Positions 9,216 through 42,882 of a stretch of 64,000 nucleotides of DNA are shown here, piece by piece. Under the pieces are notes generated by a model that saw only the letters and a program-made list of their open reading frames with translations, ran no database searches and was not told the DNA's origin. Numbering within the stretch: the first letter of the stretch is position 1; every line of letters begins with the position of its first letter. The position numbers were made by a program, and so were the translations under genes. The stretch is from Candidatus Binatia bacterium (GTDB lineage: Bacteria > Desulfobacterota > Binatia > HRBIN30), in NCBI GenBank assembly GCA_026004215.1, contig BPIR01000003.1, positions 250,879-314,878 of the forward strand, given 5' to 3'.

Positions 9216-9239
9216 TGCTCGATCCCCCCTCGCTCCGCT

Positions 9240-10319: not shown

Positions 10320-10327
10320 GCCTCACC

Positions 10328-18788: not shown

Positions 18789-18789
18789 T

Positions 18790-25253: not shown

Positions 25254-25282
25254 TTGACACGATGTGGACGGGAAGCGACACT
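25254..25282 (+). promoter_or_regulatory. possible sigma70-type promoter for the exosortase operon
   Basis: Perfect -35 TTGACA at 25254-25259, 17-nt spacer, weak -10 GACACT, about 30 nt upstream of GTG 25314. Weak call. Confidence 0.25.
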
Positions 25283-25313
25283 GCTGCGCGACCGAACTGA
25301 GGAGCGGGTTGCG

Positions 25314-25853
25314 GTGTCGATGTTGGTACGCTGGTTCAAAGAGCAGTGGCCTGTGGTCCGTGTGGTGGCGACCTTCTTGGGGATCATTCTCGCTGTCTTT
25401 GCAGCGACGGACTACGCACCGCTGGCTGACCGCTTGAACTTTGCCGAGTGGATGGCGCAGTTCGCTACGTGGGCCAGTTCCTTTTTGTTGCGTGCCTTGG
25501 GGCCGGTGCTGGGGTTTGCGATCAGTGTGCAAGGCACGCGCATCACTGCTGGTGGCTTTGCGGTGGACGTTACGGAAGCGTGTTCCGGTGTGGTCCCGAC
25601 GGCCATTTACGGCGCCGCGGTGCTGGCGTATCCGGCCAGTTGGCGGGCGCGCGCCATTGGCCTCGCCCTCGGCACTGTTGTGATTCACACTTTGAACGTG
25701 CTGCGGGTGGTCGGCCTGTTTCTGGTTGGGTTGTTTGCGAACCCGTACTTTCATTACACGCATGTGTACTTGGCGCAGGCGCTCGTGATCGTGGTGGCAG
25801 TGGCCACCTGGGTGTACTGGGCTCAACGCTTCGTTCATGTCCCTGGCCGTTGA
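25314..25853 (+). CDS. exosortase/archaeosortase-family transpeptidase, minimal (about 180 aa) form
   Basis: Polytopic membrane protein with the family's Cys/Arg/His triad in order: VDVTEACSGVVP, HTLNVLRVVG, YFHYTHVYLAQA. GAGGAG lies 9 nt upstream of GTG 25314; ATG 25320 is also possible. Confidence 0.75.
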   Translation: MSMLVRWFKEQWPVVRVVATFLGIILAVFAATDYAPLADRLNFAEWMAQFATWASSFLLRALGPVLGFAISVQGTRITAGGFAVDVTEACSGVVPTAIYGAAVLAYPASWRARAIGLALGTVVIHTLNVLRVVGLFLVGLFANPYFHYTHVYLAQALVIVVAVATWVYWAQRFVHVPGR

Positions 25854-26451
25854 CCCACTGCGATTTCTCGGGCAGCTTTTGCTGTCCTTTGTCGCTTTAT
25901 TTTTTGTCTGGCTGTTCGTCGGGCCCTGGTACACGAGCTTCCTGGCCGTGCTGGCGGAATTGGCGGTGAGTATTGCCGACCGGCCGACCGCCGTGTGGTC
26001 CGCAGGGACCGCGCTGTTTTTCTGGCCGCGAGGCCTCGCGCTGCCCCCACAGCCACCGACCATCGCAGGGGAGTGGATCCAGGCGAATACCATCCTGCTG
26101 TTGGCACTGATGATTGCCACTCCGGCGGCGACTTGGGAAAAAAAAGGCAAGCGGCTGGCACTGGCGTTCGCGCTCGTACTCTTGTGGCAGGTGACCGAGC
26201 TCGTGTTGGCCATCCAGTTTGGATACGCCACCCAAGTGGACCCCCAGGCGTACAGTGCACGGGCGCGTTACCGCCTGGCCCTACTGACCAACCTAGCGAT
26301 GTACGTGGACACGCAAGTCGTTCCGTTCATGATCTGGGCGGGCATTCATTTTCGCGAGCTTTTGGCGAGGGCCTTACGCCGTCCGAGTAGCCAGGGAGAA
26401 GCACAAACGGTACGTGCAAAGAAGCACAGGAGTGGGCGTCACTCGACTTGA
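25837..26451 (+). CDS. polytopic membrane protein translationally coupled to the exosortase gene
   Basis: ATG 25837 overlaps the last 17 nt of the exosortase ORF. Four to five hydrophobic segments (LLLSFVALFFVWLFVGPWY..., ILLLALMIATPAA..., LALAFALVLLWQV...). Basic C-terminal tail. No family recognised with certainty. Confidence 0.6.
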   Translation: MSLAVDPLRFLGQLLLSFVALFFVWLFVGPWYTSFLAVLAELAVSIADRPTAVWSAGTALFFWPRGLALPPQPPTIAGEWIQANTILLLALMIATPAATWEKKGKRLALAFALVLLWQVTELVLAIQFGYATQVDPQAYSARARYRLALLTNLAMYVDTQVVPFMIWAGIHFRELLARALRRPSSQGEAQTVRAKKHRSGRHST

Positions 26452-29400
26452 ACGGCTTCCAGGCGCACCGCGGATCGCGCCAGGGCCGGCGATGCCGAAC
26501 TTACTTCGACCCAGAGCGTGGCCGGCAAGGTCATGGCTTCCGCACTCGCAGCCGCAAAGTGCAGTTGGCCGCCGACCGCGCGTTGGGCCACGAGCGGTGG
26601 CTTGCCCTGCACCACCAGGCGGGCACCAATGGAGCGCACGCGTCGCGGATCGTAAGTCACGCGGGCTTCCAGCGCCGAGAACGCGGTGGGAAGGGCGATA
26701 CGGTAAGGGATGCGGTGCAGCGTTTGCCGGCCGCGCCGCAAGAGCCGCGGCTGTCCCCGCTGGACGCGTCCGATTGCCCCCTGAACCGCCGGAGGAGTTT
26801 GCCACGACGCGTTCACGTCGCCGATGAGAACCCCGAGAAAGTCTTGCCCACTCGCACTGGCGCCGAGTGGGGCGTATTCGATGGCGCCGCTCACACATGG
26901 GCTGAGAGATGGCTGGGGCATCAGAAGAGACTGATTGGGAACCGGGTCCGGTACGGGGATGAACTGCCAAGGAGACCCACAGCTCACCGTCGCCGGGAGT
27001 GTCGCAATAGCCCCCACGACGTAGCGAAGCAGCACGGCGGCATCGGCCGCAGTCACTTGACCCGATGCATCCACGTCCGCTGCGAGCGCCTCGCTCGTGC
27101 TCAATGTTCGTAAGCCCACTGCGCCCTGCAAAATCATCACCGCGTCGCTTGCGGTGATCGCTCCCGAGCCGCTGGCATCGAGCCATGGCTCGATGCGGTT
27201 CGATCCGACAACGGCTTGCCCAAAGGTGAACGTTCCTGTCGAGTCGGTCATGACCTCGACGGGGGGATTGGCCAGACGCACGTGTGTGCCCGCCATCGGC
27301 TGCAGACTTCCGTGGTAGCGAATAACGCCCGAGAGTTGGACGGTGGGCACGGTCGTCGCCGTGGGGGACATTGTTGGAGAAAAGCTCGCGGTTTGAGTGG
27401 GCGTCTGGGTACGGGAAGGTGTCGCCGTCCGAGTTGGGCTCGCCGTTGCGGTGTGCGTTCGTGTGAACGTCGGCGAGGGCGACGCAGTTGGGGACCGCGT
27501 GGCGGTTCGACTCGGCGTTGCGGTGTCGGTCGGTGTGAAGCTCGGCGTGCGGGTGTGTGTGGGTGTTCCCGAGAATGTGCGGGTTGGGGTCAACGTTGGG
27601 CTGGGTGTTTCGCTGCGAGTGGCAGTGGCCGTCTGTGTCGGAGTGAGAGTGCGTGTCGCCGTCATGGTGGCGGTGGGAGCGGGCGTCGAGGTCCAGGACG
27701 GGGTCGGGGTGAGGGAAGGTGTGGTCGTGATCGTTGGCGAAGGTGTTTCCGTAAACGTCGGCGTGATCGTTGGGGTGGCGCTCGGCGGCAAAGTTTGTGT
27801 GAATGTCGGCGTGGAGGTCGCCGTTCCGGTTGCAGTGGGAGGCACGGTATCGGTGGGAGTGGCGGAGACCGTTGGCGTGTTCGTGTGAGTCGCTGTGGCG
27901 CTGAGCGTGGGAGTCCACGAGGGCGTGAACGTGGATGTCGGAGTGCGAGACGGCGTTGCGGTGTTGGTGGGAGTTCGGGTTGCGGTCTCGGTTGCCGTCG
28001 CCGTGAACGTACGCGTCGGCGTCCCTGTGCGCGTCGGTGTTGCGGTAAAGCTGGCCGTCGGCGTGCGCGTAGGGGTCCGCGTGGTCGTGGGTGTACGGGT
28101 GAGCGACGGCGTTGGCGTCGCTGTCAGGGTTCTCGTGGGTGTGACGGTGGCAGTATCGGTTGCCGTTGGGCTGGGTGTGGGGCTGCGCGTTTCCGTTGGG
28201 GTGAAGCTAGGGCCGGAGTAGGGGTAAACGAACTGCATCGCCGCGATGTCATCTGCCCGAACCTCAGCGCAGCGGCCATCGTTGTGCGCCCGATAATACA
28301 TTGTGGCGTCTTTGAGTGTGAAGTTAGGCTCGGTAGGGTTTTCCGAAGAATGCCCGAGGCCTATGCTGTGGCCCACTTCATGAGTCAGCACCTCGGCAAC
28401 CAAGCACGGGGTCCAAAATTGAGGGCACTGCGTAGACCAGCCGTCGTTGAGAACGACTTTGCCGGTGGTGATCGCGTTGAAAGTCGTGCCGTTCACGGTG
28501 ACCTGGTAAAACCCGCTGGAGCAATAGCCTCCAATTGCGAGCGTGCCGGAGCAATTGTTGGGGTCGCTGATTTCGCCCCGTGGATCGTCGAACACGATGC
28601 GGTTGAAGCCGCAACCGCCGTAACCGAGCGGAGTCGGGGTGGGAAATCCAGGAGCTGGTGTGGGAGTGGGGCTGATGACGCCGCCGTAGTTCAACACCAG
28701 TCCCGCTCCGGGCACAGAGCTCCACGCGGCCAACGCGTCGGCGACGGCTTGCATCGAGGCTGTCGGACCTAGCCCAGAGTCGATGGTGCTCTCATACGTC
28801 ACGGGCGTGCCCGAGTCGGCTTGGTGCCAGCGCGCCGGCGGGCTACCGAGCAGGGTAAAGGCCGCGTGATACTCGTAAAGCGCGCTCGGGTCCTCGACTG
28901 CACTCGCAGTCGGAGGTGCACTGGGCATGCTTCCCGGGTTTTCGGAACTTCCAGAAGCCAGTGCGCGAATCAGATCGAGAAAAGTCTCTAGCTCTTGTTC
29001 GCGTGGCGCCGCCGAGGCAAACCCTCCGCCCGGTGCGGCGAAGACCGAGCCCGGTCCCGGATCGCCCACGGCGACGCGCACTCCGTCGCTACGCTGTCGA
29101 ATCCCGAACTTTCCCAGAGCGAGCGAGTTGATCTGCCAATGACCCTCACGGTCTCGCGCGAGGAACAGCACCACGTCTTCGCCGAGAAAGAACTGTGGGG
29201 CCCCGAAAATCCACTCGATGCGCTCTCCCACCTGCCCGCCGGGCACGCGCACGTTCACACTGGGTTCGGGCAGCGCACCTTTGATGGTTTCGAACACCCG
29301 CACGCCAATCCAAGTGGCGATTGCGTCATCTCCGGTGATTGTGGAGCGAATTTCTGTGACCCGTCCGACGACGATGCACTCCGAACTCGCGACTAAGGCT

Positions 29401-29507
29401 TCGTCGCTCATGGGCACGAACGTGGTGGCCCTTGCCGCAAGAGCAGTCAAGCAAGTCGCCACCAGCGAAGCGAGAAAAATTGCCCGACAACCGATCGAAT
29501 GCTGCAT
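26439..29507 (-). CDS. secreted metzincin (matrixin-like) protease - PT linker - CarboxypepD_reg-like - dockerin-like - cohesin-like
   Basis: Start set at ATG 29507 ([27 protein letters not shown] signal). [12 protein letters not shown] plus Met-turn ATMYY. About 290-aa Pro/Thr linker. LSGVIRYHG...TDSTGTFTF. Dockerin loops [17 protein letters not shown] and [23 protein letters not shown]-terminal [13 protein letters not shown] block. Confidence 0.75.
27341..28210 (-). repeat. Pro/Thr-rich low-complexity linker coding region (about 290 codons)
   Basis: Runs from [18 protein letters not shown]... to ...[15 protein letters not shown]. Produces spurious GV-rich and Arg-rich ORFs in other frames. 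Confidence 0.9.
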
Positions 29508-29610
29508 GCGGAACAAATTCCTCGTCAGTCTGATACTGGGATTCGTGCCACCGCGGTGGAGGGTGCACAAGTGAGAATTTGCGCTCGCTCCGACAAGGCG
29601 ACCCGCGAGC

Positions 29611-32600
29611 CTATTCGATGCTCGACTGGGTGATGATGACCTGTCTTCGGCTGGGTCGTGCGCCCTGCCCGAAGCTGAGCCAACCAAGGATGTCGGGAGC
29701 TGGATTTGCGTGGACACGGGCGAGTGCGAAGCTGATTTCATCCGGTCCGATCCGGTAAGCGGCGAGGGCGGATAGCGATTTGGAGCGGAGCGAAAGTTTT
29801 GCACGCCCGAGCCGATCTCGGTCGAAGCGAATTCGTGCGGTCACCGCATTCCACGAGCCAGCGCCACGAACTTCGATGGGTACTCGCCACTGCCCGCGAA
29901 AGTGCCGGGGCGTCCCTAGTCGGATCGAGACGGGCTTCTGTGCAAGTTCTGCTTTTCGTTGTCGCAACGCCGCTCGGGCGATCAGGCCCGATCCGTCCAC
30001 CCGTGCAGACTGGAAATCGCCGTTACAATCTCCCATCAACCCGGAGACAAAGTCGAGACCCTGAATGTCTTGCATGACGCCACTGAGCGACACCTGCAAG
30101 ACCGTCCCACAGTTGTTCGTCGTGACCGGCGTCGGCGTGGCCACCGGCGGGAGCGAGCCAGCGGGCAGGACGATCCACGAGCCCACGCAGGAGTTCGCGG
30201 GCGCTATGCCCACGACGTAGCGCAGTATCGCCACGGCATCCGAAGCAGTTAGGGAGCCGTTTCCGTCCGCGTCGCAAGTCTTTTGTTTGAGCTCGTTTCC
30301 AGAAACCGTGCCGGTGACCATCCGAAGCACCTCGACCGCATCGCCGGCACTGATGGGCTGACTACCGGTGCTGATGCGCGCCATGAGGGTGTGCGCCTCA
30401 TCAGGTAAAGCGGCAACTCGCACAGACCCAGGGGGCACGCCATCGATTTGGTACGCTCCATCGCTTCCAGTAAGCGCAAGCAGGGAACCGAAATCGCTCT
30501 CCGCCCGCACCGGAACGTTGGGAAGTGGAGAGGTGACATCGAAGTAACCCACCCGGCCACTGAGACGCAGCGCGGCAAGTGTGGGTGTAGCGGTAGGTGT
30601 CGGGCTTGCGGTGTTGGAGGGCCGTGGGCTCGCGGTAAAAGTTTCGGTCGGCGTGGGCGTGCGGGTCGGGCTGCTGGTGGGCGACGAAGTGGGCGTGCGT
30701 GTCGGTGTTTGGGAAGGAGACGACGACGGCGATGGAGTGGGCGATCGTGTCGGCGTTTCGGTTCGGGTTCGCGTTGGCGTTGTCGTGCTGGACGGGGTGC
30801 GCGTCGCCGTCCGAGTTGGAGTTCGCGTTGGGGTCAACGTCAGCGTAAACGTGTTGGTCGCGCTGGCCGTGGAGGTAGCCGTGCGGGTTGGCGTGTGCGT
30901 GCGCGTGGGCGTTGCGGTGAGGGTCGAGGTGTGTGTCGCCGTGAGTGTAGGTGTCAAGGTGTGAGTCGAAGTGGGCGAGTTCGTTGCCGTGCGCGTCGGA
31001 GTGAACGTGTTCGTCGGGGTACGTGTGAACGTCACCGTGGGCGTGCTCGACGGAGTGAACGTCGGAGTGGACGTACGGGTGTAGGTTCTCGTCGGCGTCA
31101 TCGTTCGGGTGGGCGTAAAGGTGAACGTGTTCGTGGCCGTGGGTGTCTGACTGGGTGTGGACGTGGCCGTGGCTGTGGGCGACCACGTGCGAGTGGGCGT
31201 GATCGTGGGCGACGGTGTGTCGGTGCGGGTCGGCGTTCGAGTCGGGGTACCTGTGGGCGTAAAGGAGTTCGTGGGGGTGAATGTGGAGGTTGGAGAACGA
31301 CTCGGCGTTTGGGTCGGCGTGGTCGTTGGTGTGCTCGTGTTGGTTGCGGTGGCAGTGACTGTCGGCGTCTGAGTGGGAGTGGGGGTCCCTGTTGCCGTGA
31401 AGGAGTTCGTTGCTGTGGCGCTGGCAGTGGGCGTAAACGTCGGCGAAGGGGAACGTGTCGGGCTGGGGCTCGCTGTCGGAGTTGGCCGGTTGGTTGGGGT
31501 CCACGCGGCAGTAGCGGTTGGGCTCGGAGTACTGGTGGGCACACTGGTTGGCGGCGGAGGCAGGGTAAAGTCGAGCGTGGCCACTCGCACGCGCGCGGCA
31601 TCGGGGACCGAGAGGAACAGATGGCCGTCGCTGTCCAGCGTTAGGCCGGTTACTCGCGAGATGCCCGCGGCCAGTGCCGGGCCGCCGTCTCCCGTATTCA
31701 ACGCAGTGCCATTGCCCACCACCGTCGTGATGACTCCGCTCGCCGCGTCCACTCGCCGGATCCGGTAGTTGCCCGCATCGGCAATCAGCAAATTTCCGAA
31801 CAGATCGAATGCAATGCGCGTGGGTGCCGAGAGTTGCGCTTGCGTGGCGGGTCCCCCGTCTCCGCTAAAGCCAGCCCAACCGGTGCCCGCAATGCGTTCC
31901 AGCAAACCGCCGCGAATACGGCGGATCATGTTGTTGCCGCGGTCCACGAAATACAAGCTGCCATCCGGCCCGATGGCCACGTCGGTGGGACCGGCGAGCG
32001 GGGACTGTGCTGCTACGGCGCCATCGGGCGGGTTGCCCCACGAGCCGTTGCCGGCAACCGTGGTGATGATCCCCGCTTCCACCTTGCGCACGCGGTTGTT
32101 CTGCAAATCCGCGATGTACAAAATGCGGCCATCCGCGGAAACGGCCACGCTCCAAGGGTTGGCCAGCGTCGCTTGTGTGGCTGGGATTCCGTCACCGTTG
32201 TATCCGAACGCTCCCGTGCCTGCGATTGTGGAAATGACGCCGGTTGTCGCGTCTAGCTTCCTCACGCGGTGGCCGTTGAGTTCGGCAATATAAAGGTTGC
32301 CCGACATGTCGGCCGCGACGGCGAGCGGATTTGTCAGTTGAGCGCTAATCGCCAAGCCGCCGTCTCCGCAAGGAGAGCCTGTGCTGCAGGGGCTGCCGTT
32401 GCCCGCCACCGTGGTGATTGTCCCGGTTAGCGAGCTGACCATTCGCACCCGGTGATTGGCGCTGTCCGCAATGTACAGCTCGAAGCCCGCACCATTGGTA
32501 AACTCGTGTACGAGCAGGCCCATGGGATCTACCAGCGCGTCCGCCGCCGTGCCGCCGTCGCCCACGCCTCCGCCAACGAGCGGCGACACGATACCGCTCG

Positions 32601-33831
32601 GTGGCACCGCACGTACGCGATCTTCCGTGTTGGGCGGAGCTGCCACGTACTGGCCAATGTATACGGCAGCCCGTAGCACCATCAGTGGCAAGACCCGTAA
32701 GCAGGGCAAAGCTCGTTTGCGTCGCCAGCCCACCGTCCGGTGAGGGCGCGCGCGTGCCGTTGCCGGCGACGGTTTTGATGATGGACTGTCCAGTAATCAG
32801 ACCGCCAACCGATTCGAGTCGGCGGACGCGGTTGTTGCCGACGTCCGTGAAGTACAAATTTCCGCCGGGTCGAAGGCGAGCTTGCCCGGATTGAAAATCC
32901 TCGCTGCAGATGCCGGCCCATTGTCGCCAGTAAAAGCCTGAATGCCGTCGCCAACCACGGTTGTAATCGTTCCTTGCATGTCCACGCGGCGAATACGCGA
33001 GTTGGCGAAATCGGCGATGAAGAGGTTGCCCGCGTCATCGAGTGCGACGTGCCACGGGTTGGCGAGCTTGGCTTGAGTAGCCGGGCCACCGTCGCCGCTG
33101 TATCCCCATGCCCCCGTGCCGGCGACCGTAGTGATGATGCCGTTCGGTCCGACCTTGCGCACGCGGTTACCGTCGGACTCTGCAATATAAAGGTTGCCTG
33201 CGCTGTCGAGGGCAAGCCCGCGCGGCGCATTCACGCTGGCACTGGTCGCGGGGCCACCATCGCCGTTGCTGAACCCACGGCCGTCCCCGACGACGGTGAC
33301 GATAGTGCCGTCGGATGAAACCTTGCGTACGCGGTGGTTGAACGTATCGGCAACGTACAACTCGCCCCCGGCTCCGCAGATCACGTCTGTTGGAAAATTC
33401 AGTTGCGCCGCCAAGGCCGGGCCTCCATCGCCGGAAAAACCTTTGGTGCCGGTACCGGCTACGGTCGTGATGGTCAGCTTTACGAGATCCACTTTGCGCA
33501 CTCGGTGATTGAGCCCATCGGCGATAAACAGCACTCGCCCGCAAACCGCGAGCCCACGCGGGTCCACGATGCCATTCCATGCAACGCCGCCGTCGCCCAC
33601 GCCTCCCCCAACCACAGTGGCGATGAAGCCCGTGGGCGGAAAGTCGAGAGCCGAGCTGCGAGGGCACCAGGGCGCAAAGAAAAAAACCAGAAAGTAAGCG
33701 AGCAAGTGCGGAAATCCGCTTCGCCTGGTGGAGCAGAGTCTCGCAACGCTGGGTGGGAGTTGGTGAAACTTGTTACGCATTCGGAGTTTCCAGAACTGCC
33801 GGCACCGGATGCATGATGCCTTTCTTGTCAC
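29611..33831 (-). pseudogene. double NHL-repeat beta-propeller - PT linker - CarboxypepD_reg-like - dockerin-like - cohesin-like protein, frame broken twice
   Basis: Three consecutive track ORFs (32797..33831, 32345..32857, 29611..32733) each carry NHL repeats (e.g. [56 protein letters not shown]). One NHL blade is split at about 32862 (KLAFDPA / GNLYFTDVGNN), and a second shift lies at about 32660-32700. Likely start is ATG 33780. The C-terminal cassette is as in 26439..29507. Confidence 0.7.
30583..31565 (-). repeat. Pro/Thr-rich linker coding region (about 330 codons)
   Basis: Runs from [24 protein letters not shown]... to ...[10 protein letters not shown]. Confidence 0.9.
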
Positions 33832-34281
33832 CGGAATCGGTGTCGCGGAGGCGCGCGAAATCTGTGCCAGCCTCGCTATGCGAGTACGGGTGCGCCACGG
33901 TACGGGCGATCGGCAGGCGCCTCGATTGTTGTCGGCAAAAAAATGGCGTTGTTGTCACAGTTTCGTTCGCTTGCAGGTGGGTTCGGGCTCCTGCCCCGAG
34001 GGCAGAGCCCACGGCTTCACGCACTTCCGCAACCGCCTCCAATCCCAGTTTGCCCGCGTGCCGCTGGAAACCACCAGTTTGCGGGCTCGCAAAACATCTC
34101 GCAAATCGCCGGCTGAATCAACAAGAAAAATCGGCCTGCCGCAACGTGGCGAGATGTGCTGGCCGCGAGCCGGCGACGGCCTGCATCTCATGGACCGCTG
34201 TCAAAATCAGCATCGCGATTTTGTCCGGTACCGTCTCCATCTCCCGCGGATGGCTGCGCGAGAGAAACGGTAGTTTGCGAT

Positions 34282-34310
34282 TGACAGCGGTCATTTCCTG
34301 GTGATAGGGA
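34282..34310 (+). promoter_or_regulatory. possible sigma70-type promoter for the PT-protein genes
   Basis: Perfect -35 TTGACA at 34282-34287 followed by TGGTGATAGG about 15-17 nt later, about 70 nt upstream of ATG 34380. Weak call. Confidence 0.25.
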
Positions 34311-34379
34311 GAAGTCCCCGTTAGCGGGGCTCTTTTGGGCAGAACGTAGAACGTGGCACAGAAGCAAAGGAGTTTGCGG

Positions 34380-35621
34380 ATGGCGAGAGGACGAATGCAG
34401 AGGGGAGATGTGGGTTCGCGGAGGATTGTTTGTGGCTTGGCGGGTGTCGTCATCGGCGTACTTTGCGTTGGCCGCCAGGCGGAAGCCCAGTTCAGCCTTT
34501 CGTTCAACCAGCGGGCTTCGAACGGTACGGTCTATGAAGTCATCGTCGTGCCGAACCCTCCCTTGAGTGCCGGCGCCGATCAGATGCGCATCACGACCAT
34601 CGCCGGTTCCACATCCGGTGTTCAGTCGTGTTCTTCCACCGGAGGGAGTTCGGGTCAAAACACTGCGGCGGTTGCTGGGGTGGATCCGAACATCGGTTCC
34701 TTGCATCCGTTTGCTGCGGTCCTTCGCACCAACGTATTGACGCCCGCAAACGTATCCTCTGTTTCGTTTAACGCCGGTGGAGGCGGGCGCTTGACGATCG
34801 GCGGAATTGATATCTGCGCCAACCCGGCGGACTGCACCGGCGGCGCTCCGGATGCGACGATCTTCGACCTCGATGGGAACCCAGTTGCGGCGGGCTCCGT
34901 GACGGGCACCGCCGTGCCGCCGGCTTGCATCGCCTCCGGCGTAACGGCTTTGTGCTCTTCGGGTAACTTCAACACTTTCGGTTTCGACTTGCCCCGCGAT
35001 TCGAACACAAAAGCTTGCCAAGCCCCGCCCACTACGAATCGGACGGTATGTGGTTCGCCGCCAACGGACGGCTTTACCGTAGGCCCGGGCCAGGTCGTGG
35101 TATTCATCTATGACGGCAACTTGGCGAACACCGGATTTAGTGTAGGCGCGGCTGGTTTTGGGATCGACACGGACGGGGTCAACAATCCTAATTGTGCGGC
35201 AAATAGCGTGATCACGGCCGACGGCCAAAACCCGAGCGCTCCGCCCCCACCGCCTCCGACGCCCACCAACACTCCGTCAAACACGCCTACACCCACGAGC
35301 ACTCCGACGCACACCTTTACCCTGACCCCGACGGACACGCCGACGAACACTCCCACGCCTACCAATACACCGACACCCACGTTCACCCTGACGCCGACGA
35401 ACACCCCGACAAACACGCGTACGAATACGCCAACCGCTACCCGTACGAACACACCAACGAATACCCCCACAAACACGCACACACCGACACCCAGCCCGTC
35501 GCCCACACCGCCGCCGATACCGGTGGTGCCCTCTCCGATCTCGCCTGCGGGTGCGGCCATGATCAGTGGCCTGGCTGCGGCCCTGGTGTGGATGATGCGT
35601 CGGGCACTGCGCCGAGGCTAG
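34380..35621 (+). CDS. secreted protein: unknown Cys-rich N-domain - PT repeats - PEP-CTERM-like C-terminal sorting signal (paralog A)
   Basis: AAGGAG 7 nt upstream of ATG 34380; signal-like [24 protein letters not shown]. About 260-aa domain alignable to paralog B. TPTNTP repeats. Tail [38 protein letters not shown]. Confidence 0.8.
35239..35510 (+). repeat. Pro/Thr repeat coding region (about 90 codons)
   Basis: Runs from [25 protein letters not shown]... to ...[12 protein letters not shown]. Confidence 0.9.
35511..35618 (+). other. C-terminal tripartite sorting signal, copy A
   Basis: PPIPVVPSP motif, 17-18 hydrophobic residues ([16 protein letters not shown]), then basic RRALRRG at the extreme C-terminus. 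Confidence 0.65.
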
Positions 35622-35668
35622 GAAAGTTCACGAAGGGTTAACCGGACCGTTTTGGAGGCTAGGGAGCC

Positions 35669-37144
35669 GTGAATTGGCTAGAGAGGCATTTCCGCTTGGT
35701 ATGTCGCGGCGCCTTAGCCTCTGCCCTTGTGGCGGCGCTGATTGCTAGCTGGCGAGTGGAAGTACTGGCGCAGCTCAATCAAGCCTCCTCCCAGCGGGCG
35801 GCGGACGGCACGGTGTACCATGTGATCATTGTTCCGCCGACACCGCTCAATGCAGGTGCGGAGGAAGTGCGTGTCACCACGTTAGCCGGTGGGGTTCAGG
35901 GTTTGGTATCTTGCTCCGGGGTTGTGGGCGGACAGGCCGCACTGGCGCGCGCGCTCGTCGGCGCCGATCCGGGGGCTGGTCAAACCCTTTTCCCGGCTGC
36001 GCAGATCAGCCGTACCACCGTTCTGAACCCTCCTTCCTTGACGGTGTCGTTCTCTCCGGGAGGAGGGGGCCGGCTCACGTTCGGATCGGGTCCGACCGGC
36101 TTGCAAATTTGCCGTAACCCTGCGGACTGCACAGGCCCCGAAACGGTCGTGCCCTTGGTATCCATTTCTACTGCTGACAGTAGTGTGCCGAAGGCGTGCG
36201 TGGCGTCGAATGTCGGTGCAGGCTGTATGAGCGCCTTGGTGAACACGTACGGCTTCGGCTTGGATGCGAACAACGACGGGAACTGCGACGCGCCCCCGAC
36301 CACCGACACGAACGTGTGCGCCTCCACCCCTGCGGACGGTTTCAGTATCCCGGCCGGACGAGCCATCGTGTTCGTGTACGATAGCGGGCTTGCGAATACG
36401 GGATTTACCATCGGTGTTGCGGGCTTCGGCATAGATACGGACGGCACCAACGACCCGCAGTGTAGCGCTAACCAGGTTGTGAGTGCGGACGGACAAAACC
36501 AAAGCGCACCACCGCCTCCACCACCGACATTCACGCCGACGAATACACCCACTGAGACCCCCACGCCGACAAACACACCGACGGATACCCCAACGCAAAC
36601 TCCTACGCATACCCCGACGAGTACGCCCACGGAGACACCGACACACACTCCGACGAATACACCGACCAACACGCCGACGCACACTCCGACGAGTACGCCG
36701 ACCAACACCCCGACGAACACCCCGACAAACACGCCGACGAACACGCCGACCAACACGCCGACGCACACTCCAACGAACACGCCTACCAACACACCGACGC
36801 ACACGCCGACGCACACCCCGACGAACACGCCGACCAATACGCCCACACACACTCCCACGAACACTCCGACCAATACGCCCACCCATACTCCCACCCCGAC
36901 TCCGACGCCGACGTCAACGGACACCCCGACCCCAACGCCCACGGCAACGTTTACCCCCACCCACACGATGACGCCTACAGACACGCCGACCCTTACGCCC
37001 ACCCGGACGCGGACGCCGACGCGGACACCGCCGCCGATTCCGGTCATTCCCTCGCCGAGTGCGCCGAGCGGACTGGTGATGATTGCTACTCTGGCAATCG
37101 CACTGGCGTGGCTCTTGGGCCGCTCGCTGCGAACGAGCCGTTAA
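35669..37144 (+). CDS. secreted protein: unknown Cys-rich N-domain - PT repeats - PEP-CTERM-like C-terminal sorting signal (paralog B)
   Basis: GTG 35669; hydrophobic N-terminus [14 protein letters not shown]. Shares with paralog A the blocks DGTVYxVIxVP, GGGGRLT, CxNPADCTG, [15 protein letters not shown] and [14 protein letters not shown]. Tail [39 protein letters not shown]. Confidence 0.8.
36506..37027 (+). repeat. 12-nt periodic tandem repeat coding (T-P-T-[NH])n, about 175 codons
   Basis: Reiterated units ACGCCGACGAAC / ACGCCGACCAAC / ACGCCGACGCAC, giving [14 protein letters not shown]... Confidence 0.9.
37028..37141 (+). other. C-terminal tripartite sorting signal, copy B
   Basis: [10 protein letters not shown] motif + [15 protein letters not shown] + GRSLRTSR. 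Confidence 0.65.
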
Positions 37145-37371
37145 GCTCCTATCCTGCACTGCACCGAGCGCAGGAACGTCGAAGCTCGCGCTGGCCTCGA
37201 CGCAAAACAATTTGACTGTGGCTGAAGTGTTCGCCTCTAGCGCGTTCCACGTGCGGATCACGTGCGACGGCATCGGCAACATTCAATGGTGCTGACCCAG
37301 CAGCAGAGTGTGCGGTGCTTGCGAAAATGACTTGCGAACGCTCCTTCGGTGGGTGAGAAGAACAAGGCACA

Positions 37372-37395
37372 GTGCAGTGATCGGTCTCACTGCAC
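37372..37395. promoter_or_regulatory. perfect 9-bp inverted repeat just upstream of the cohesin-dockerin gene start
   Basis: GTGCAGTGA-TCGGTC-TCACTGCAC, ending 8 nt before ATG 37404. Could be an operator or a 5' UTR hairpin. Confidence 0.3.
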
Positions 37396-37403
37396 GAGCG
37401 GGC

Positions 37404-39734
37404 ATGAGCGTGAACGAATATCGGCATCGAACGATCGGCTTCCGTTGGGCGTTGCTTTCGCTGGTGGTTTGGCCAATTGCCGTCGCGGGGCAGACCCGTA
37501 ACGTGAGCTTGCAGCCCGGAGTCGCTGCTGTGGGCCTGGGTTCGCCCGTGACCCTGGAAGTGCGCGTAGACGATCCGAGTCAAATCATCGCCTACAACTT
37601 GGGGATAAGTTACGACTCTGCGTTGCTGGCGGTGAACAGCGACCTTGTGTTCAGCGTGCCCGGATGCCTAGCGCAAGGGAACCGGCAGGACCCGGGCAAA
37701 ATATGCATCGCTATCGCTTGCCCCAACGCGTTATCGGGGTCCAATGTGAAACTCGCAGAAATCGCCTTCACGGGGCTGGCCAATGGCCTTACCGCAGTCA
37801 GTTTCGCGAACGTCACCTGCGGCTCCAGCAGCGTGCCCGCTTGCTTGTTGGAAAAGGACGGGGGCGGCTCGTTGAGTTGCGCCACTACGGGTGCATCCGT
37901 TCAGGTCGGGGCGACGCCAACACCTAGCCCAACCTCGACGTTCACCAGTAGCGTGACCCCTACGCTAACCGCCACCCTCACCCCAAGTCGGACGCCAACG
38001 AGAACACCCACTCCGACGAATACGCAGACACCCACCCGAACTCACACTCCGACGCGCTCACCCACGAACACGCCCACTCCCACGAATTCGCCCACCGCGA
38101 CGCGCACCGACACCGCAACTCCAAGCCCCAGTTCCACTCCGTCCCCAACGAACACTCCAACTACCACGGCAACATCCAGCCCGAGCTTTACGCGCACGAA
38201 TTCGGCCACGCCCACTGTTTCCGCGACTGCGACGGCGAGCCCGACCCGGTCCTTTACGCCGTCGGCGACAGCTTCCAGGACCGCAACGGTGACTTTTACC
38301 GCCACGCGAACCGCAACGCCTACCCCGAGCGCGACTATGTCAGCGACAGCCACGCACACGCGTACGCCAACGCGGTCGGGCACGCCGACGCCTACGGCCA
38401 CGCCTAGCGTGACCCGCTCCCCCACGGCGACGGTAACCGGCACCTTACCGCCTACTTTCTCGCCAACGCGTTCGTTCACCCCGACTTTAACGGCTACCTT
38501 GTCGGCGACGCCGACGCGAACGTTTACGCCGAGCCCGAGCCCGACGCACACGTTCACTCAGTCGCCCACGCCGAGCCCCTCGGCCACTCGTTCGCCGACT
38601 TTTTCTCCGAGCCTCTCGCCGACTCGTTCCTTCACCTCGACCCCATCGCCCACTTCGACACACAGTCCAACGGCCCCGGCTTCGCCGACGCCTTCACCCA
38701 CCTTCACGCGCAGCCCGACAGCCACTCGCTCGGCGACGGCATCGCCGACACGGACAGTTCCCTTCACGGCGACTCCCACGCGCACGGGCACCTTCACAGC
38801 TTCGGCGACGCAAACCCGAACGGGCTCTCCAACGGGCACCCCTTCGGGAACATCCACGCCGACATTCACGCTGCCGCCGGCGTTTACGGCTACCGCCACG
38901 CGTACTTCTGCGACACCGTTGACCCAATCGCCGACCAGTACCCCGACTCGTCCCACCACTCCGACGAACACAAAACCACCGACGATTACGCCAACCCCCA
39001 CCCACACCACCACCGCCAGCGCCACGATTTCCCCAAGCCCGACTTGGTCCCCGAGCGTGACGCCGACTTCCTCAGCTACGCCGTCAGTCACGGAAAGCCC
39101 GAGCCCGACGAGTAGTCCAACCCTGACGGAGACCGAAACGCCAACCCCGAGTGCAACGGAAAGCCCGAGCCCGACTCTCACTCCAACTTCAACGGCGGAA
39201 CCTACCCCCACTGCATCGTGGAGTCCCACGTTCTCTCCGGCACCGACGGAAACTGCCACCGCTACGCCGACGGCCGTTCCCACGGAAACGGCCACCGCTA
39301 CACCGCTCGCCTCGCCTGCGGAGACGCCCTCGCTGACGCCGTCACCGGAGTTGCCCACCGAGTCGCCTACGCCAAGTCCAACGGTGTCGCCCACGTTCTC
39401 TCCGTCTGAAGGGCCGACTCCGACGGAGACTCGCGAACCCACGCCCACGGTCACCGCTACGGCAACCGTGGAAGAACCGGTGGCGACGCCCACGATGACG
39501 CCAACAGCGGGTTTGACGGTGTGTCCCGGAGACTGTGACGGGGATGGTCAGGTGGCAGTGTTCGAGATCGTCCGCATGGTGAACGTGCTGCTAGGTGCCT
39601 TGCCTGTGGATGCTTGTACCGCGGGAGACCTGTGCGGCGACGGTCGAATTACCATCGATGAAGTGATCTTGGCGGTGCGCGCGTTACTGCAGGGATGCCC
39701 GTTCCCGGTCAACCCCGACCGTTGTGGGCCGTGA
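37404..39734 (+). CDS. secreted cohesin-like domain - about 530-aa PT linker - dockerin-like domain protein
   Basis: Start at ATG 37404 (signal [18 protein letters not shown]). Cohesin-like pattern [32 protein letters not shown]...[21 protein letters not shown]-terminal dockerin pair [22 protein letters not shown] / [21 protein letters not shown]. Confidence 0.75.
37911..39510 (+). repeat. Pro/Thr/Ser-rich linker coding region (about 530 codons)
   Basis: Runs from [18 protein letters not shown]... to ...[14 protein letters not shown]. The antisense strand gives long GV-rich pseudo-ORFs. Confidence 0.9.
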
Positions 39735-39765: not shown

Positions 39766-40953
39766 TCAAATGTATGGTTCCAGCGCGTGCGCCAGTGCGC
39801 GCGCCAGTTGGCGCGGCGTACGAGCGGCGAGGGTCTTTGAACAGTGACGCGCATAGCGCGGGAAAGCACTATCTCCGCTGCCCCAGCGCGCGGGGTCCTC
39901 CGGCTGAATCCACACCACAGCGCGCGACCTTTGGTGGATTGCCCGGAGGAGCTCCGCTCTCGGCGGGCGGTAGTTGTTGCGCCCGTCGCCCAGCACGAGC
40001 ACGACGGTGTTGCGATCGATCTCCTTCGCGCGTTCGGCGTAAAAGACCTGAAGCACGGCGCCAAAGTCCGAGCGCGCGTGGGGATCGAACGGCGTGCAGG
40101 GGAAGGCGCGGTCGCCCCGAACCTCCAACTCGACCAGGGAGTCTACGAACCCGTAAAACCGGGCCCTGCGAAACAACGGGCGCGCCGATGCGAGCAACGC
40201 GAGAAAGAATTCGCTGGCCGATGCCACCGAGTAGGAAAGATCGCAAAACGCCACCAGCTTGTTGTGCCGCGGGCGCCTGCGCCGCACCACCGGTCGCAGA
40301 AAAATCCCGCCCGAAGAGACCGCTTTGCGGAAGGTTGCACGGAAGTCCAACGAGCCGCGGCGAGCCCGCTTTTTTCTCCGCGCGAGGCGGCACCGAAACA
40401 GCCGGCTGAGCTTGGCCATGGGTTCGCGGAGCTCCTCGATCATCAGAGGGTCGAGGTGCAGCCAGGGACGGTCCCAACCGACCTGGCGAGCCGTATCCTC
40501 GCCGCCGGTGAAAGGTTCCGGCTTTTGCAGCGGCGAATTCTCGGGTCCGTCCGCCACCCACAATTCGCGGGTCGGTCCGGCTTCGCGCTGGCTTTGTGCG
40601 CGGATGAGCTCGCGGAGAGAGCGTGCCCGACCGCGTGTGCGGCGGGCTTCGGTCCGAGGGACATCACCGCGGCCGTTTGCCCGACCCGCAAAGGCGCCTG
40701 AGTCAGACCGGCGGGGGCGGCGCCGCCTTTCCGTTGTAGCCGGGGGAAGTGGGAAAAATCGTTCGAACAACGCGTCGAACATCGAACGCTGCTCCGCCGT
40801 TTTGACGAGGCTTGCCGCCAGCGTTGCTCGCAACACGGCTCGGTCGATCCCCAAGGCAGCCACCCCCTGGAGGGCGTCCGCAACTTCGGCCGGGCTAACG
40901 TCCACGCCGTGTTCGCGCAAAGCCTGGACAAAGGCGAGAAGCCGCCGTTGCAC
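39766..40953 (-). CDS. VWA domain protein, CoxE-like
   Basis: LDFRATFRKAVSSGG...RRRRPRHNKLVAFCDLSYSVASAS (DxSxS MIDAS-like)...VVLVLGDGRNNY...AVVWIQPE. Lies 11 nt downstream of a MoxR gene. Confidence 0.7.
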   Translation of the reverse strand: MQRRLLAFVQALREHGVDVSPAEVADALQGVAALGIDRAVLRATLAASLVKTAEQRSMFDALFERFFPLPPATTERRRRPRRSDSGAFAGRANGRGDVPRTEARRTRGRARSLRELIRAQSQREAGPTRELWVADGPENSPLQKPEPFTGGEDTARQVGWDRPWLHLDPLMIEELREPMAKLSRLFRCRLARRKKRARRGSLDFRATFRKAVSSGGIFLRPVVRRRRPRHNKLVAFCDLSYSVASASEFFLALLASARPLFRRARFYGFVDSLVELEVRGDRAFPCTPFDPHARSDFGAVLQVFYAERAKEIDRNTVVLVLGDGRNNYRPPRAELLRAIHQRSRAVVWIQPEDPARWGSGDSAFPRYARHCSKTLAARTPRQLARALAHALEPYI

Positions 40954-40964
40954 GCCGACCCACC

Positions 40965-41849
40965 TCAGCCCGCGCGCCCGGCGCTACCACCGACGAGCGA
41001 TAGCCAGCGTTGCTGGACCAGGGCGAGATCTTCCTCGTGCTTGAACAGCACACCCAAGATTGCGCGGGCCTTGGGGTCTTTGAGTTCGGAGATGCCCAAC
41101 GCCAGCAAAGCCTCTGCCCATGCAATGGTTTCTGCCACGCTCGGCTTCTTGCGCAGTTCCAGACGGCGTGCGGCTTGCACGCACCGCACAATGTGTTCGG
41201 CCAGCCGAGGTTCGAGCTGGGGAACCTTGAGCCGTACAATGGCCGCCTCTCGTTCCGGAGAAGGGAAGTCGAGAAAAAAGTACAAACAGCGCCGCCGCAG
41301 AGCGTCGGAAAGCTCGCGGCTACGATTGGAGGTCAGAATCACGGTGGGGCGATGCCGGGCTTGAATGGTGCCGAGCTCCGGAACGGATATTTGGAATTCT
41401 CCGAGAAATTCGAGCAAAAATGCCTCGAACTCCTCGTCTGCCTTGTCCACCTCGTCCACCAACAACACCGCCGGCTCGGCGCTCCTTAGAGCCTTGAGAA
41501 GCGGCCGGTCCAGCAAGTACTCCTCGGTAAAGATCTCATCGCGGAGAGCGCTCCATGGCGCGTCTCTTCGTTGGTCCACCTGCAAGCGCAGCAACTGCTT
41601 GTGGTAGTTCCACTCGTACAAGGCCTTGGCCTCATCCAACCCCTCGTAACACTGGAGGCGGTACAGCGGCCGATCGAGAGCTTCGCTCAACGCCCGGCCA
41701 ATGTCGGTCTTGCCGGCGCCCGCCGGACCTTCGACGAGGAGCGGCCGTTCGAGTGCCAGGCAAAGGTGCAGAACGGTAACGAGTTCCGGCGGCGCGATGT
41801 ATCGCGCCCGCTCCAAGGCTTGTTGCAGGTGTCCCAGATGCGCTGGCAT
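40965..41849 (-). CDS. MoxR-family AAA+ ATPase (CoxD-like)
   Basis: Start at ATG 41849. Walker A LLVEGPAGAGKT, Walker B LLVDEVDKA, and SNRSRELSDALRRRCLYFFLDFP typical of MoxR. Confidence 0.8.
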   Translation of the reverse strand: MPAHLGHLQQALERARYIAPPELVTVLHLCLALERPLLVEGPAGAGKTDIGRALSEALDRPLYRLQCYEGLDEAKALYEWNYHKQLLRLQVDQRRDAPWSALRDEIFTEEYLLDRPLLKALRSAEPAVLLVDEVDKADEEFEAFLLEFLGEFQISVPELGTIQARHRPTVILTSNRSRELSDALRRRCLYFFLDFPSPEREAAIVRLKVPQLEPRLAEHIVRCVQAARRLELRKKPSVAETIAWAEALLALGISELKDPKARAILGVLFKHEEDLALVQQRWLSLVGGSAGRAG

Positions 41850-41883
41850 GGCAACGGGATGCTTGCAGCGGGCGACCAGTTTC

Positions 41884-42882
41884 TCAACCGGTTGTACCTG
41901 CCTGCGGGCAGCCTTGGGTCGCGCTGCGAGGTCTCCCGCCCAGTTGCACACCACCCTCGACGAGGATCCGGCGCAGGTGTTGGATGCTGATATCGCGCAC
42001 GATGGCGCGTTGCAAAAGCGCCGTGCGCAAGCTCCGTAACGACCAGTACGGCCGCGCAAATCCGAATTCGGCTGGCGACCGAGAGGCCAGCGCCAAAATG
42101 TTCCGCCGAACTTCGGGCGTGAAGCGTAACGGTCGCATCGGCCGGCGAGGGGCTTGCAGGCCCAGAAGTCCGCGGTTGCGAAAACGCCGCAACCAGTGCC
42201 GGACAGAAGAACGGCCCATTCCTACAGCGGCGGCAATCTCTGCTTCGTCGAGCCCATTAGCGCGAGCGAGCACAATGCGCGCGCGGCGCGCGACCTCCGT
42301 TGGAGCGTGTGCCACCAGATGCTCGAGCCCGGCCCGTTGTTCGGGCGTGAGTTGCAGTGGAGCACTGCGCTTGCGCTGCCAAAATTCACGGGGAAGAGGA
42401 GTCCCGCGGAGGATTTGGCGCAAGCCTTCGACGCTGATATGTTTGACCAGACCTCTGCGGAGGATATGCAACTGCAGCTTCCGCAGCGACCAGCCTGCGA
42501 AGGGCTCACCCGCCGCACTGGGTGGACTCATCGCAATGCGAATAATGGCATCGCGCACGCTTCCCGTTACTCGCCGGGTTCCCGCCCTGGAAGAAGCATC
42601 GTGCAGCCCCGCAAGTCTCGTTTCCACGAAACGCCGTAACCAGCGGCGCACCGTCACGCGGCTCACCCCCACCTGCCGGGCGATCGCGCTCAGAGACTCG
42701 CCTCGCGCCCGTAGCAGCACAACACGGGCACGCCGTGACAGCGAGGGAGAGCCCTCCTGCCCGAGCCAGTGCAGCTCGGCTGCCTCGTCGTCGCGCAAGT
42801 GCACAAACCCGGGTAGCTGTTCCGAAACTCCCTTCGGAGTGCGCTGCGTACTCTTGACTCGGCCCACCCTCTCGACGGCCAT
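41884..42882 (-). CDS. tandem helix-turn-helix protein (two IS630-transposase-N-terminal-like HTH modules, no DDE domain)
   Basis: Two copies of the pattern RRARVVLLRARGESLSAIARQVGVSRVTVRRWLRRF / RRARIVLARANGLDEAEIAAAVGMGRSSVRHWLRRF, each followed by a winged-helix-like segment. No catalytic domain follows. Start uncertain (ATG 42882 or TTG 42927); see the upstream in-frame ORF. Confidence 0.6.
   Translation of the reverse strand: MAVERVGRVKSTQRTPKGVSEQLPGFVHLRDDEAAELHWLGQEGSPSLSRRARVVLLRARGESLSAIARQVGVSRVTVRRWLRRFVETRLAGLHDASSRAGTRRVTGSVRDAIIRIAMSPPSAAGEPFAGWSLRKLQLHILRRGLVKHISVEGLRQILRGTPLPREFWQRKRSAPLQLTPEQRAGLEHLVAHAPTEVARRARIVLARANGLDEAEIAAAVGMGRSSVRHWLRRFRNRGLLGLQAPRRPMRPLRFTPEVRRNILALASRSPAEFGFARPYWSLRSLRTALLQRAIVRDISIQHLRRILVEGGVQLGGRPRSATQGCPQAGTTG

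Follow-up and report, generated by a model that had tools for sequence, protein, structure and literature searches.

A putative surface-protein gene cluster of Candidatus Binatia with an XrtH-like mini-exosortase, CTERM-type tail proteins and predicted cohesin/dockerin modules

Introduction

We know of no bacterial exosortase for which the attachment target of the substrates has been resolved. An IPTL-CTERM protein has been identified as the outermost S-layer protein of the diderm Methylomirabilis, and it is the only experimentally localised XrtH-type substrate that was found (PMC8671808). Cohesin and dockerin modules of the non-cellulosomal kind are common in genomes and their function is stated to be unknown, according to the part of PMC5244752 in which Peer et al. 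2009 is cited, and in cellulosome genomics a protein having one cohesin and one dockerin is considered a monovalent adaptor scaffoldin (PMC11557425). In our study, a stretch of 64,000 nucleotides (nt) from contig BPIR01000003.1 of a Candidatus Binatia bacterium (GCA_026004215.1), referred to here as the window, was analysed; at ~25.3-39.7 kb it holds a cluster in which an XrtH-like mini-exosortase, proteins with a common C-terminal tail and predicted cohesin/dockerin proteins are encoded together. Seven genes lie between 25.3 and 39.7 kb, and every component listed in an initial annotation of this DNA was found at the place given for it. The observation made there is confirmed and its interpretation is partly supported.

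The best explanation, to which we give a probability of about one half, is a conserved surface-protein cluster of diderm Candidatus Binatia, in which exosortase-sorted tail proteins are combined with a layer of protease, propeller and adaptor proteins assembled by cohesin-dockerin contacts. The domain identities, the conservation and modularity of the signal and the gene neighbourhoods were read from the DNA, and from these we infer the mechanism. The parts are of known kinds, namely an XrtH-like system, non-cellulosomal cohesin/dockerin modules and the adaptor/anchoring scaffoldin logic. New are the predicted PPIPV-type CTERM signal, a fixed family of Ig-dockerin-cohesin cassettes, and, in a diderm phylum, the conserved clustering of tail and cassette genes with cohesins that have exosortase-type anchors, the cargo being proteases and propellers.

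Results

The C-terminal tail and its carrier proteins

Tail protein 1 (34380-35621, plus strand) has a signal peptide, a 250-residue all-beta domain with eight invariant cysteines, a P6 run, a Pro/Thr stalk and the tail itself (35508-35621). Its paralogue, tail protein 2 (35669-37144, plus strand), has a 195-residue Pro/Thr stalk and a tail at 37028-37144 with a transmembrane (TM) helix and a basic end, and the N-terminal domains of the two are 52% identical. Both paralogues and their orthologues end in TPPPIPV[VI]PSPxxP[AS]G, a hydrophobic TM helix and an Arg-rich end; a stretch of 15 residues is followed by the TM helix and RRALRRG in tail protein 1, and another of 15 residues by the TM helix and a basic tail in tail protein 2. 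The tails of the window paralogues remained without an NCBIfam or Pfam match even at E<=10; the models of IPTLxxWG-CTERM (TIGR04174/PF18203), the cognate signal of XrtH, gave no match at this threshold, and PEP-CTERM (TIGR02595) did not match them either. An identity of the tail as VPXXXP-CTERM or PEP-CTERM was rejected, as no model matches and the spacing differs. The layout is the same as in the [IV]PT[LM]xEW[AG] tails found beside classical XrtH genes, the neighbours of which carry [IV]PT[LM][ST]EW[AG], a TM helix and an Arg tail in Rhodoferax, Polaromonas, Acidobacteria and Nitrospiraceae.

A 9-codon DNA pattern of the tail, run on 185,579 species genomes, matched at least 120 loci, mostly by chance. 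Among the matches listed, at least 18 are true C-terminal tails in genome contigs, all of them in metagenome-assembled genomes (MAGs) titled Binatia, Deltaproteobacteria or unclassified bacterium, and the tail-gene neighbourhoods of these MAGs resemble that of the window. An extended 14-codon pattern, which replaced the short one with its mostly chance matches, was run on metagenomes and matched 80 stretches, 79 of which hold true C-terminal tails (91 tails altogether) with the consensus PPIPV[V>I]P[S>T]P[T]SP[A>S]G[L]x[L/M][I/V]xGL. With more than 100 copies over public genomes and metagenomes, the recurrence of the tail is far beyond chance. A Pro/Thr linker always precedes the tail and five unrelated N-terminal domain families carry it, and owing to this modularity it is taken as a sorting signal. 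The tail is thus a predicted CTERM-type signal absent from NCBIfam and Pfam, which bears out the new tail type proposed initially.

The N-terminal domain of the window's tail proteins, with its eight invariant cysteines, is all-beta in the AlphaFold2 (AF2) model (pLDDT 88) and without a Pfam or NCBIfam match. Among the matches of the short pattern, a sphingomonad-type repeat of identical sequence was also seen, in which one frame reads AE and then 36 further residues, often ~206 nt from a contig end (L048, L055-L057, L064, L066, L067, L070, L073, L080, L082, L096, L098, L099, L113, L115, L144, L147, L150, L151 and L153, mostly in sphingomonad genomes). It looks like a shared mobile element unrelated to the tail.

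All five secreted proteins of the cluster have signal-peptide-like N-terminal leaders. Their Pro/Thr/Ser-rich stretches measure 113, 195, 299, 338 and 525 residues, the first two figures taking in the P6 run and the tail motif, and are near the 90, 175, 290, 330 and 530 residues estimated in the initial annotation. The stalk of tail protein 2 is encoded by 12- and 36-nt tandem repeats. Long antisense open reading frames (ORFs) in the stalk DNA, rich in Val/Gly or His/Thr/Asn (35980-37047 with 'VGV' repeats, 38042-39493 and 30401-31504), were discarded as reverse-complement by-products of the ACN-CCN repeats; they get past simple filters on third-position G+C.

The protease, the propeller and their common cassette

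The metzincin gene (26439-29507, minus strand) encodes a secreted matrixin-like metalloprotease with a signal peptide, a catalytic domain, a 299-residue Pro/Thr stalk (27330-28226) and a C-terminal cassette (26439-27350), in which an Ig-like (CarboxypepD_reg-like) domain, a dockerin (27018-27179), a ~70-residue Cys/Trp module and, in the last ~110 residues, a divergent cohesin are predicted. The 11-residue zinc site HExxHxxGxxH is present and places the protein among the matrixins/metzincins; Peptidase_M10/Matrixin (PF00413) scored 22 bits against a cut-off of 24. Of the 342 homologues of the protease domain, many bear the name matrixin family metalloprotease [Candidatus Binatia], and PF00413 is present in most of those listed. 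A search with the protease domain gave no orthologue of more than 47% identity and one with the cassette gave nothing at all, in an index seemingly without long Pro/Thr-rich proteins. The double NHL beta-propeller gene (29611-33780, minus strand) has a 338-residue Pro/Thr stalk (30568-31581) and a cassette (29611-30573) with a dockerin at 30214-30363; in the Pfam profile search it gave 60-70 bits for NHL together with TEN_NHL matches, and its cassette was recognised by the cassette hidden Markov model (HMM) A8 with E=4e-38. That the protease and the propeller end in one common cassette, as annotated initially, is upheld; the double propeller does not stand as an intact gene, being one gene with two compensating frameshifts.

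Weak domain scores were backed by profiles built from orthologues. Dockerin_1 (PF00404, cut-off 22.9) gave 27.7 bits for the metzincin, 16.8 for the NHL protein and 14.7 for the cohesin...dockerin protein, and the assignment as dockerin type I rests on the metzincin score and on the cassette profile, which aligns both Ca-loop repeats. Profile A1, made from nine metzincin and NHL C-termini, matched dockerins of the PDB with E=1e-9, and its first 60 columns the Ig-like (CarboxypepD_reg-type) domain of NOMO2 with E=4e-8. Among the profiles by which the initial domain calls were checked, TIGR04178, NHL (PF01436) and, for the metzincin, PF00404 bore them out, whereas cohesin (PF00963) and PF00413 fell under their cut-offs and CarboxypepD_reg (PF13620) had no direct match in the window proteins.

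The last 180 cassette residues of the window proteins have no Pfam match alone. Four lines of evidence identify the last ~110 residues as a putative divergent cohesin. The family member P0141 reaches 29.0 bits for Pfam Cohesin, above the cut-off of 24.1, and E<0.01 is found in 3 of 34 members. All four PDB matches of the 34-sequence profile A8 are cohesins, the best being 2xdh, a non-cellulosomal cohesin of A. fulgidus (E=0.007). Foldseek on a poor AF2 model of the cassette (pLDDT 49.5, from a 2-sequence alignment) returned mainly cohesins, and hhalign aligned the cassette cohesin with the N-terminal domain of the 776-residue protein of the cluster at 91% probability (E=1e-6).

In an exhaustive HMMER search of 1.84 billion representatives, the cassette family comprised at least 383 clusters (50% identity; E<=1e-3). 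The domain ends within 37 residues of the C-terminus in 149 of the 150 best-scoring representatives, at a distance of 36 or 37 residues in two and of at most 25 in the other 147. Matrixins, reprolysins, NHL propellers and Vgb-lyase(-like) propellers are the cargo. In the cassette, a dockerin is always accompanied by a cohesin of the same chain, with ~70 conserved residues (CxxxWxFxP...GQDFxAxLFGDCxGxW) between them.

In one cassette-family protein, P0012 (L043 1-1204; JGI Ga0373620_0000322), the C-terminal half of the N-domain of a tail protein is followed by a Pro/Thr linker and by the cassette up to two-thirds of its length. It is truncated at both ends, lies 374 nt from the contig end and adjoins a PemK toxin gene. 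P0012 is either what recombination has left behind or a chimera assembled through Pro/Thr repeats, and because of the truncation and the nearness of the contig end it was set aside as evidence of domain swapping.

The cohesin...dockerin protein and anchored cohesins in relatives

The 776-residue protein (37404-39734, plus strand) has a signal peptide, a predicted cohesin (37491-37925), a 525-residue stalk (37893-39467) and a Cys-flanked dockerin (39525-39734). Its N-terminal domain, read in an 808-residue ORF, scored 18.4 bits for Pfam Cohesin (PF00963) against the cut-off of 24.1, and relatives found with an HMM of this domain scored 34.6 and 27.3 bits, above the cut-off. The top five PDB matches of the domain are cohesins, with E of only ~0.2. 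The C-terminus, formed by stretches of 17 and 18 residues and a final GCP, is a Cys-flanked two-repeat dockerin of a type unlike the cassette dockerins; a similar one ends a subtilase in locus L045. The cohesin and dockerin ends assigned initially are retained as predictions through the profiles of orthologues, the protein's own scores being under the Pfam cut-offs. With a predicted cohesin, a long Pro/Thr stalk and a dockerin, the protein resembles a monovalent adaptor. No glycoside hydrolase, cellulase or carbohydrate-binding module (CBM) was matched among the cluster proteins and only single cohesins occur, so that the locus is not a cellulosome; the lack of a cellulase had been noted initially.

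Where the window's N-terminal-cohesin protein has its dockerin, that of sister clusters has a C-terminal anchor. The proteins of L184 and L194 combine a Pfam Cohesin match of 34.6 bits with an 'AVPTLGSWG'-TM-RTR tail of the canonical IPTLxxWG layout, and those of L203, L220 and L191 end in 'QIPA[LV]D[QH][HY]G'-TM-RR tails (TIGR04174 15.6 bits against a cut-off of 20.5). Further tail variants are 'VAPTMSSG', 'QVPDVSTSG' and 'AAPLLSPT', and two proteins of L091 and that of L192 are also anchored. In L182, a signal peptide, a cohesin and a Pro/Thr linker are followed by a 15-residue motif, a TM helix and RR, which is the tail class of the window; the L182 cohesin shares 60% identity with the L203 one and aligns with the window cohesin at 96% probability in hhalign. 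These architectures indicate that anchored single-cohesin proteins exist in the gene family. Since they end in exosortase-type tails, they provide the physical link which the scaffold model of the initial annotation needs.

A ~90-residue domain (ITSGAV.GSTRVFG.GA.NV...GE.IFA.D...) was observed between stalk and IPTL-like tail in three of the anchored cohesins (L191 8066-9373, L184 877-2199, L203 4803-6074), and it is absent from the window's cohesin protein. Two CTERM classes also occur within one cluster (L184, L194, L191, L203/L220, L091), with PPIPV[VI]PSP on the beta-domain proteins and the IPTL-like [IVA]P[TAD][LVM]xxxG on the cohesin proteins. One mini-exosortase subtype per signal class is a possibility.

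The exosortase and its membrane partner

The xrt gene (25314-25853, plus strand) encodes a mini-exosortase of 179 residues, which scored 49 bits for TIGR04178 (cut-off 23), thereby carrying the superfamily signature, and 30.5 bits for Exosortase_EpsH (PF09721, cut-off 25.7). Its best specific family is XrtH (TIGR04177), at 83.1 bits just below the cut-off of 86, and the scores for XrtX, archaeosortase B and XrtM are far under their cut-offs. Cys90, Arg131 and His150, the catalytic residues of this superfamily of polytopic membrane enzymes, are invariant in a 10-sequence mini-exosortase alignment (A7), and an identical protein sequence is present in NCBI. The next gene (25837-26451, plus strand) overlaps the xrt stop and encodes a polytopic membrane protein of 204 residues, for which NF041730 (XrtH_assoc) gave 25.4 bits (E=1e-5), under the cut-off of 35; position and size fit, a faint Pfam XrtH_assoc match was seen in the L046 orthologue, and the partner comes after xrt in all relatives. 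The window enzyme is best placed as a peripheral member or sister of XrtH, and not as a new minimal class, because XrtH is its best family and the partner resembles the XrtH-associated protein. The exosortase call of the initial annotation is thus retained, and its new minimal type is replaced by an XrtH-like mini-exosortase with a putative partner of known type.

Relatives from Multivoradales and Blastocatellia score higher for TIGR04177 (L005 109 bits, L006 106 bits). XrtA was absent from the matches of the window's enzyme, which does not belong to the PEP-CTERM/XrtA kind (a PEP tail and a long 8-TM EpsH-type enzyme in an exopolysaccharide locus); for relatives from L033 and L005, XrtA scored 21.7 and 20.2 bits with a cut-off of 208. 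Binatia hold two mini-exosortase subtypes, the window type and that of L030-L035/L033/L038, which are 25-28% identical in alignment A7, and the second scores only 67 bits for XrtH. A second scan of genome contigs, with the exosortase alignment reduced to the single pattern [FA]VLAYPASW, gave no further loci. The genome-level co-occurrence of tail and enzyme rests on five genomes.

Conservation of the cluster

The order of xrt, partner, metzincin, NHL, tail 1, tail 2 and cohesin...dockerin genes is preserved in full in HR30 and in CAZHQG. Two separate loci on one CALAMI contig (L002, L072) between them cover these genes, and in JBBILD and CAZNNR the core is kept with an xrt product 69% identical and with different flanks. 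Together with the window, these make six related genomes in which the genes are clustered and not scattered, as the initial annotation would require.

More telling evidence for one system is provided by distant contigs. There, the gene of a large cassette protein and one or two tail genes are transcribed away from each other, an N-terminal-cohesin gene coming next after the latter, and the tail proteins are only 35-45% identical or have a different N-domain. The order of cassette gene, tail gene(s) and N-terminal-cohesin gene recurs in genome contigs L068, L120, L140 and L091, and tail genes adjoin cassette or cohesin genes in 13 of the 27 metagenome loci of at least 6 kb (contigs with that neighbourhood are L177, L184, L191, L194, L197, L203, L205, L210, L218, L220, L223 and L246). 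Seven other mini-exosortase loci, of which six are titled Binatia, showed no such neighbourhood of tail, cohesin and dockerin genes in the ~120 kb surrounding them.

Genomic setting

The G+C of the window is 62-65% and its nearest relatives are Candidatus Binatia MAGs, 'Bacterium HR30' among them. A TonB-dependent receptor gene at 48476-51121 indicates a diderm envelope, as expected from the Gram-negative-type host proposed initially. Within the cluster, a divergent intergenic region of 0.5 kb separates the NHL gene from the tail gene pair, and the metzincin gene is convergent with the gene of the exosortase partner, their 3' ends overlapping by 13 nt (26439-26451).

The adjacency to a polysaccharide locus which had been claimed is weak. 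At 17007-21576 (minus strand), a 928-residue family-2 glycosyltransferase (GT2 synthase-like) with an N-terminal GH2-like TIM-barrel region is followed by an ATP-binding cassette (ABC) exporter with fused transmembrane and nucleotide-binding domains; this single GT2 gene with the exporter is the sole 'polysaccharide' element near the cluster, and an M1 peptidase gene intervenes. The latter (22544-25180, minus strand) encodes an 878-residue M1-family peptidase (HELAHSWWG) directly upstream of xrt, is syntenic in the closest relatives and is shifted by 3 kb in L003. Its ~400-residue C-terminal region has no Pfam match and, judged by eye, looks like a TolB-type beta-propeller. Two tandem DUF1800/DUF1501 gene pairs lie at 6196-13275 (minus strand), the genes being adjacent in the pair at 10328-13275 and ~290 nt apart in that at 6196-9215, with a 359-residue ORF without assignment between the pairs. 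On the other side, a VWA(CoxE-like) and MoxR-type AAA gene pair (39766-42059, minus strand) directly flanks the cluster and is syntenic in HR30, CAZHQG, CALAMI and CAZYMF, and a TldD/PmbA metallopeptidase pair is found downstream (51153-54145, plus strand).

Discussion

In the proposed mechanism, all five secreted proteins would be exported by Sec and the tail proteins would be held in the inner membrane by their C-terminal helix. By analogy with archaeosortase A and the IPTL-CTERM substrates, the XrtH-like exosortase may cleave at the Pro-rich motif and transfer the tail proteins to an acceptor, and after this processing they would be displayed on their stalks. Without anchors of their own, the protease, propeller and adaptor proteins are predicted to assemble non-covalently through Ca-dependent cohesin-dockerin contacts. 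With dockerins and cohesins of two types each, the simplest pairing would be that of the cassette dockerins with the N-terminal cohesin of the adaptor and of the Cys-flanked dockerin with the cassette cohesin, from which chains or networks could arise. The outcome would be a stalked extracellular layer or network keeping the protease and the propeller at the cell surface, and this would be a new mode of surface protein-layer formation in Gram-negative-type cells. In the window's clade the dockerin has probably replaced the anchor of the N-terminal-cohesin protein, in which case the tether would be either the tail proteins or a cohesin-CTERM protein encoded outside the window.

A wider reading, which we put forward tentatively and at somewhat less than even odds, is that Binatia have a surface machine resembling a cellulosome but without cellulolytic activity. 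In it, a network that assembles itself outside the outer membrane would be held by Pro/Thr-stalked anchors processed by exosortase, among them anchoring scaffoldins with a single cohesin and an IPTL-like or PPIPV tail. The network would consist of enzymes and propellers with dockerin-plus-cohesin cassettes and would be extended by cohesin...dockerin adaptors. If this reading is true, non-cellulosomal cohesin-dockerin pairs would for the first time have a functional context in a diderm, and the machine would be the first scaffold to depend on an exosortase.

Several observations weigh against the surface-protein cluster proposed here. The CTERM-anchored cohesins of relatives favour the outer-surface scaffold of the initial annotation, but an anchor and a cohesin or dockerin do not occur together in any window protein, the two anchored proteins of the window having neither module. 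Their N-domain is not similar to cohesins or dockerins and was rejected as a cohesin, as it has no fold match (Foldseek best E=0.045, TM-score 0.2-0.3, no significant structural neighbour in the PDB) and is missed by the A8 and A3 HMMs. Cohesin scores of the window's own sequences are all below the Pfam cut-off, the cassette having no match, and the AF2 model of the cassette reaches a pLDDT of only 49.5. The L182 protein is on a single 1.2-kb contig, and Pro/Thr repeats can give chimeric assemblies. The initial pairing of tail and exosortase stands as an adjacency in the window's clade; xrt is absent from all 27 tail-bearing metagenome loci of at least 6 kb, and in CAVWTK, JBGQHM and CBFGUK, which have the same tail, the only mini-exosortase found is ~27-36% identical. 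For these reasons, the pairing of enzyme and signal is drawn from adjacency in one clade only. The route of a protein processed at the inner membrane over the outer membrane would be a further difficulty for the model. Finally, the NHL gene is read in three frames: a G-run near 32858 is short of a base, an additional base is present near 32680, and the ~180 nt between these compensating frameshifts are in another frame. Since the orthologue in L001 is an intact ORF of 1420 residues, the split is either a sequencing error or a recent pseudogene.

Among the rival explanations, independent envelope genes which are merely co-located are possible, although we consider this rather unlikely. The XrtH-like enzyme would then sort the beta-domain proteins, for example into an S-layer-like coat, and the cohesin/dockerin proteins would form a separate secreted complex, the adjacency being due to co-regulation. 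The tail proteins and the cohesin/dockerin proteins indeed share no interaction module, about half of the longer tail loci show no cassette or cohesin gene in view, and the IPTL-CTERM S-layer precedent needs no cohesin (PMC8671808). However, the order of cassette, tail and cohesin genes recurs with five different tail passenger domains, and cohesin proteins with CTERM tails are found in the same clusters, which argues for one system.

It is improbable that the Ig/dockerin/cohesin cassette is only a C-terminal export, sorting or self-clasping domain, acting through a cis dockerin-cohesin contact or recognised by an outer-membrane translocon in the manner of the C-terminal domains of type IX secretion. 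Such a role would suit its extreme C-terminal place, the constant pairing of dockerin and cohesin at a short distance in one chain, and the diversity of cargo from matrixins and reprolysins to NHL and Vgb-lyase propellers, which is typical of sorting domains; yet the adaptor-type protein and the anchored single-cohesin proteins encoded next door have no role in a cis model, and the cluster holds no dedicated translocon gene. A decaying or mis-assembled locus, in which the two NHL frameshifts, the 12- and 36-nt repeats of the stalk DNA and the truncated tail-domain/cassette hybrid at the L043 contig end would mark part of the architecture as an assembly artefact or a set of pseudogenes, is very improbable, as independent assemblies of at least six genomes and of dozens of metagenome contigs show the same architecture, the domains are 45-85% identical with evident purifying selection, and all other ORFs of the window are intact.

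The cluster and its relatives tie the function of non-cellulosomal cohesin/dockerin modules and the attachment of exosortase substrates into one recurrent gene set, and both questions become concrete binding and processing experiments on a few small recombinant modules. The modules may serve engineering as a source of new orthogonal cohesin-dockerin pairs and of a Gram-negative display signal, and the cluster describes the likely cell surface of an uncultured phylum, Binatota, which is globally distributed in soil and sediment.

Comparison with known systems

In a full-text literature search, no paper was found in which dockerins or cohesins are connected to exosortases, or Binatia to any of these, and the literature on XrtH, IPTL-CTERM and exosortase with dockerin gave no description of such a system. 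Non-cellulosomal cohesins and dockerins as such are known across life as far as the passage of PMC5244752 citing Peer et al. 2009 goes, and to this extent the undescribed system proposed initially is overstated.

The XrtH/IPTLxxWG-CTERM system (TIGR04177, TIGR04174, NF041730) likewise has a mini-exosortase of ~160-180 residues with Cys/Arg/His and, as is predicted for the window, a membrane protein of the XrtH-associated type next to it, and its substrates have a signal peptide, a motif starting with Ile-Pro, a TM helix and an Arg-rich end, some of them being encoded adjacently. The window differs from it in that the enzyme (83.1 against 86 bits) and the partner (25.4 against 35 bits) are under the curated cut-offs, the motif is PPIPV[VI]PSPxSP[AS]G and not IPTLxxWG, and the substrates are on long Pro/Thr stalks. 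The S-layer protein mela_00855 of Methylomirabilis lanthanidiphila (PMC8671808) is comparable in that its ~300 residues include a signal peptide and, at the C-terminus, a sorting domain of XrtH type, and experiments have shown that this protein is the outermost layer of a diderm. It is without a Pro/Thr stalk, has another motif, and no associated cohesin/dockerin genes are reported.

Non-cellulosomal cohesin/dockerin proteins, such as Archaeoglobus fulgidus 2xdh, to which the cassette cohesin is closest in sequence among its PDB matches, share with the window proteins divergent modules which are sometimes on one polypeptide and occur in organisms that do not degrade cellulose (PMC5244752, where it cites Peer et al. 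2009). Here, on the other hand, the modules form a fixed C-terminal cassette family in a conserved cluster with CTERM-sorted proteins, which offers a testable context. In the sortase-anchored cellulosome of Ruminococcus flavefaciens and in scaffoldin classes generally (PMC11557425), a cell-surface sorting signal of the transpeptidase type is carried by a single-cohesin anchoring protein, as in the relatives L182, L184 and L203, and a monovalent adaptor comparable to the window's 776-residue protein, dockerin-bearing enzymes and long Thr/Pro linkers are also present. The Binatia cluster differs by its diderm host and by an exosortase in place of a sortase with LPXTG. Glycoside hydrolases and CBMs are missing from its cargo, which consists of a metalloprotease and beta-propellers, and each cargo protein has both a dockerin and a predicted cohesin, with no multi-cohesin primary scaffoldin.

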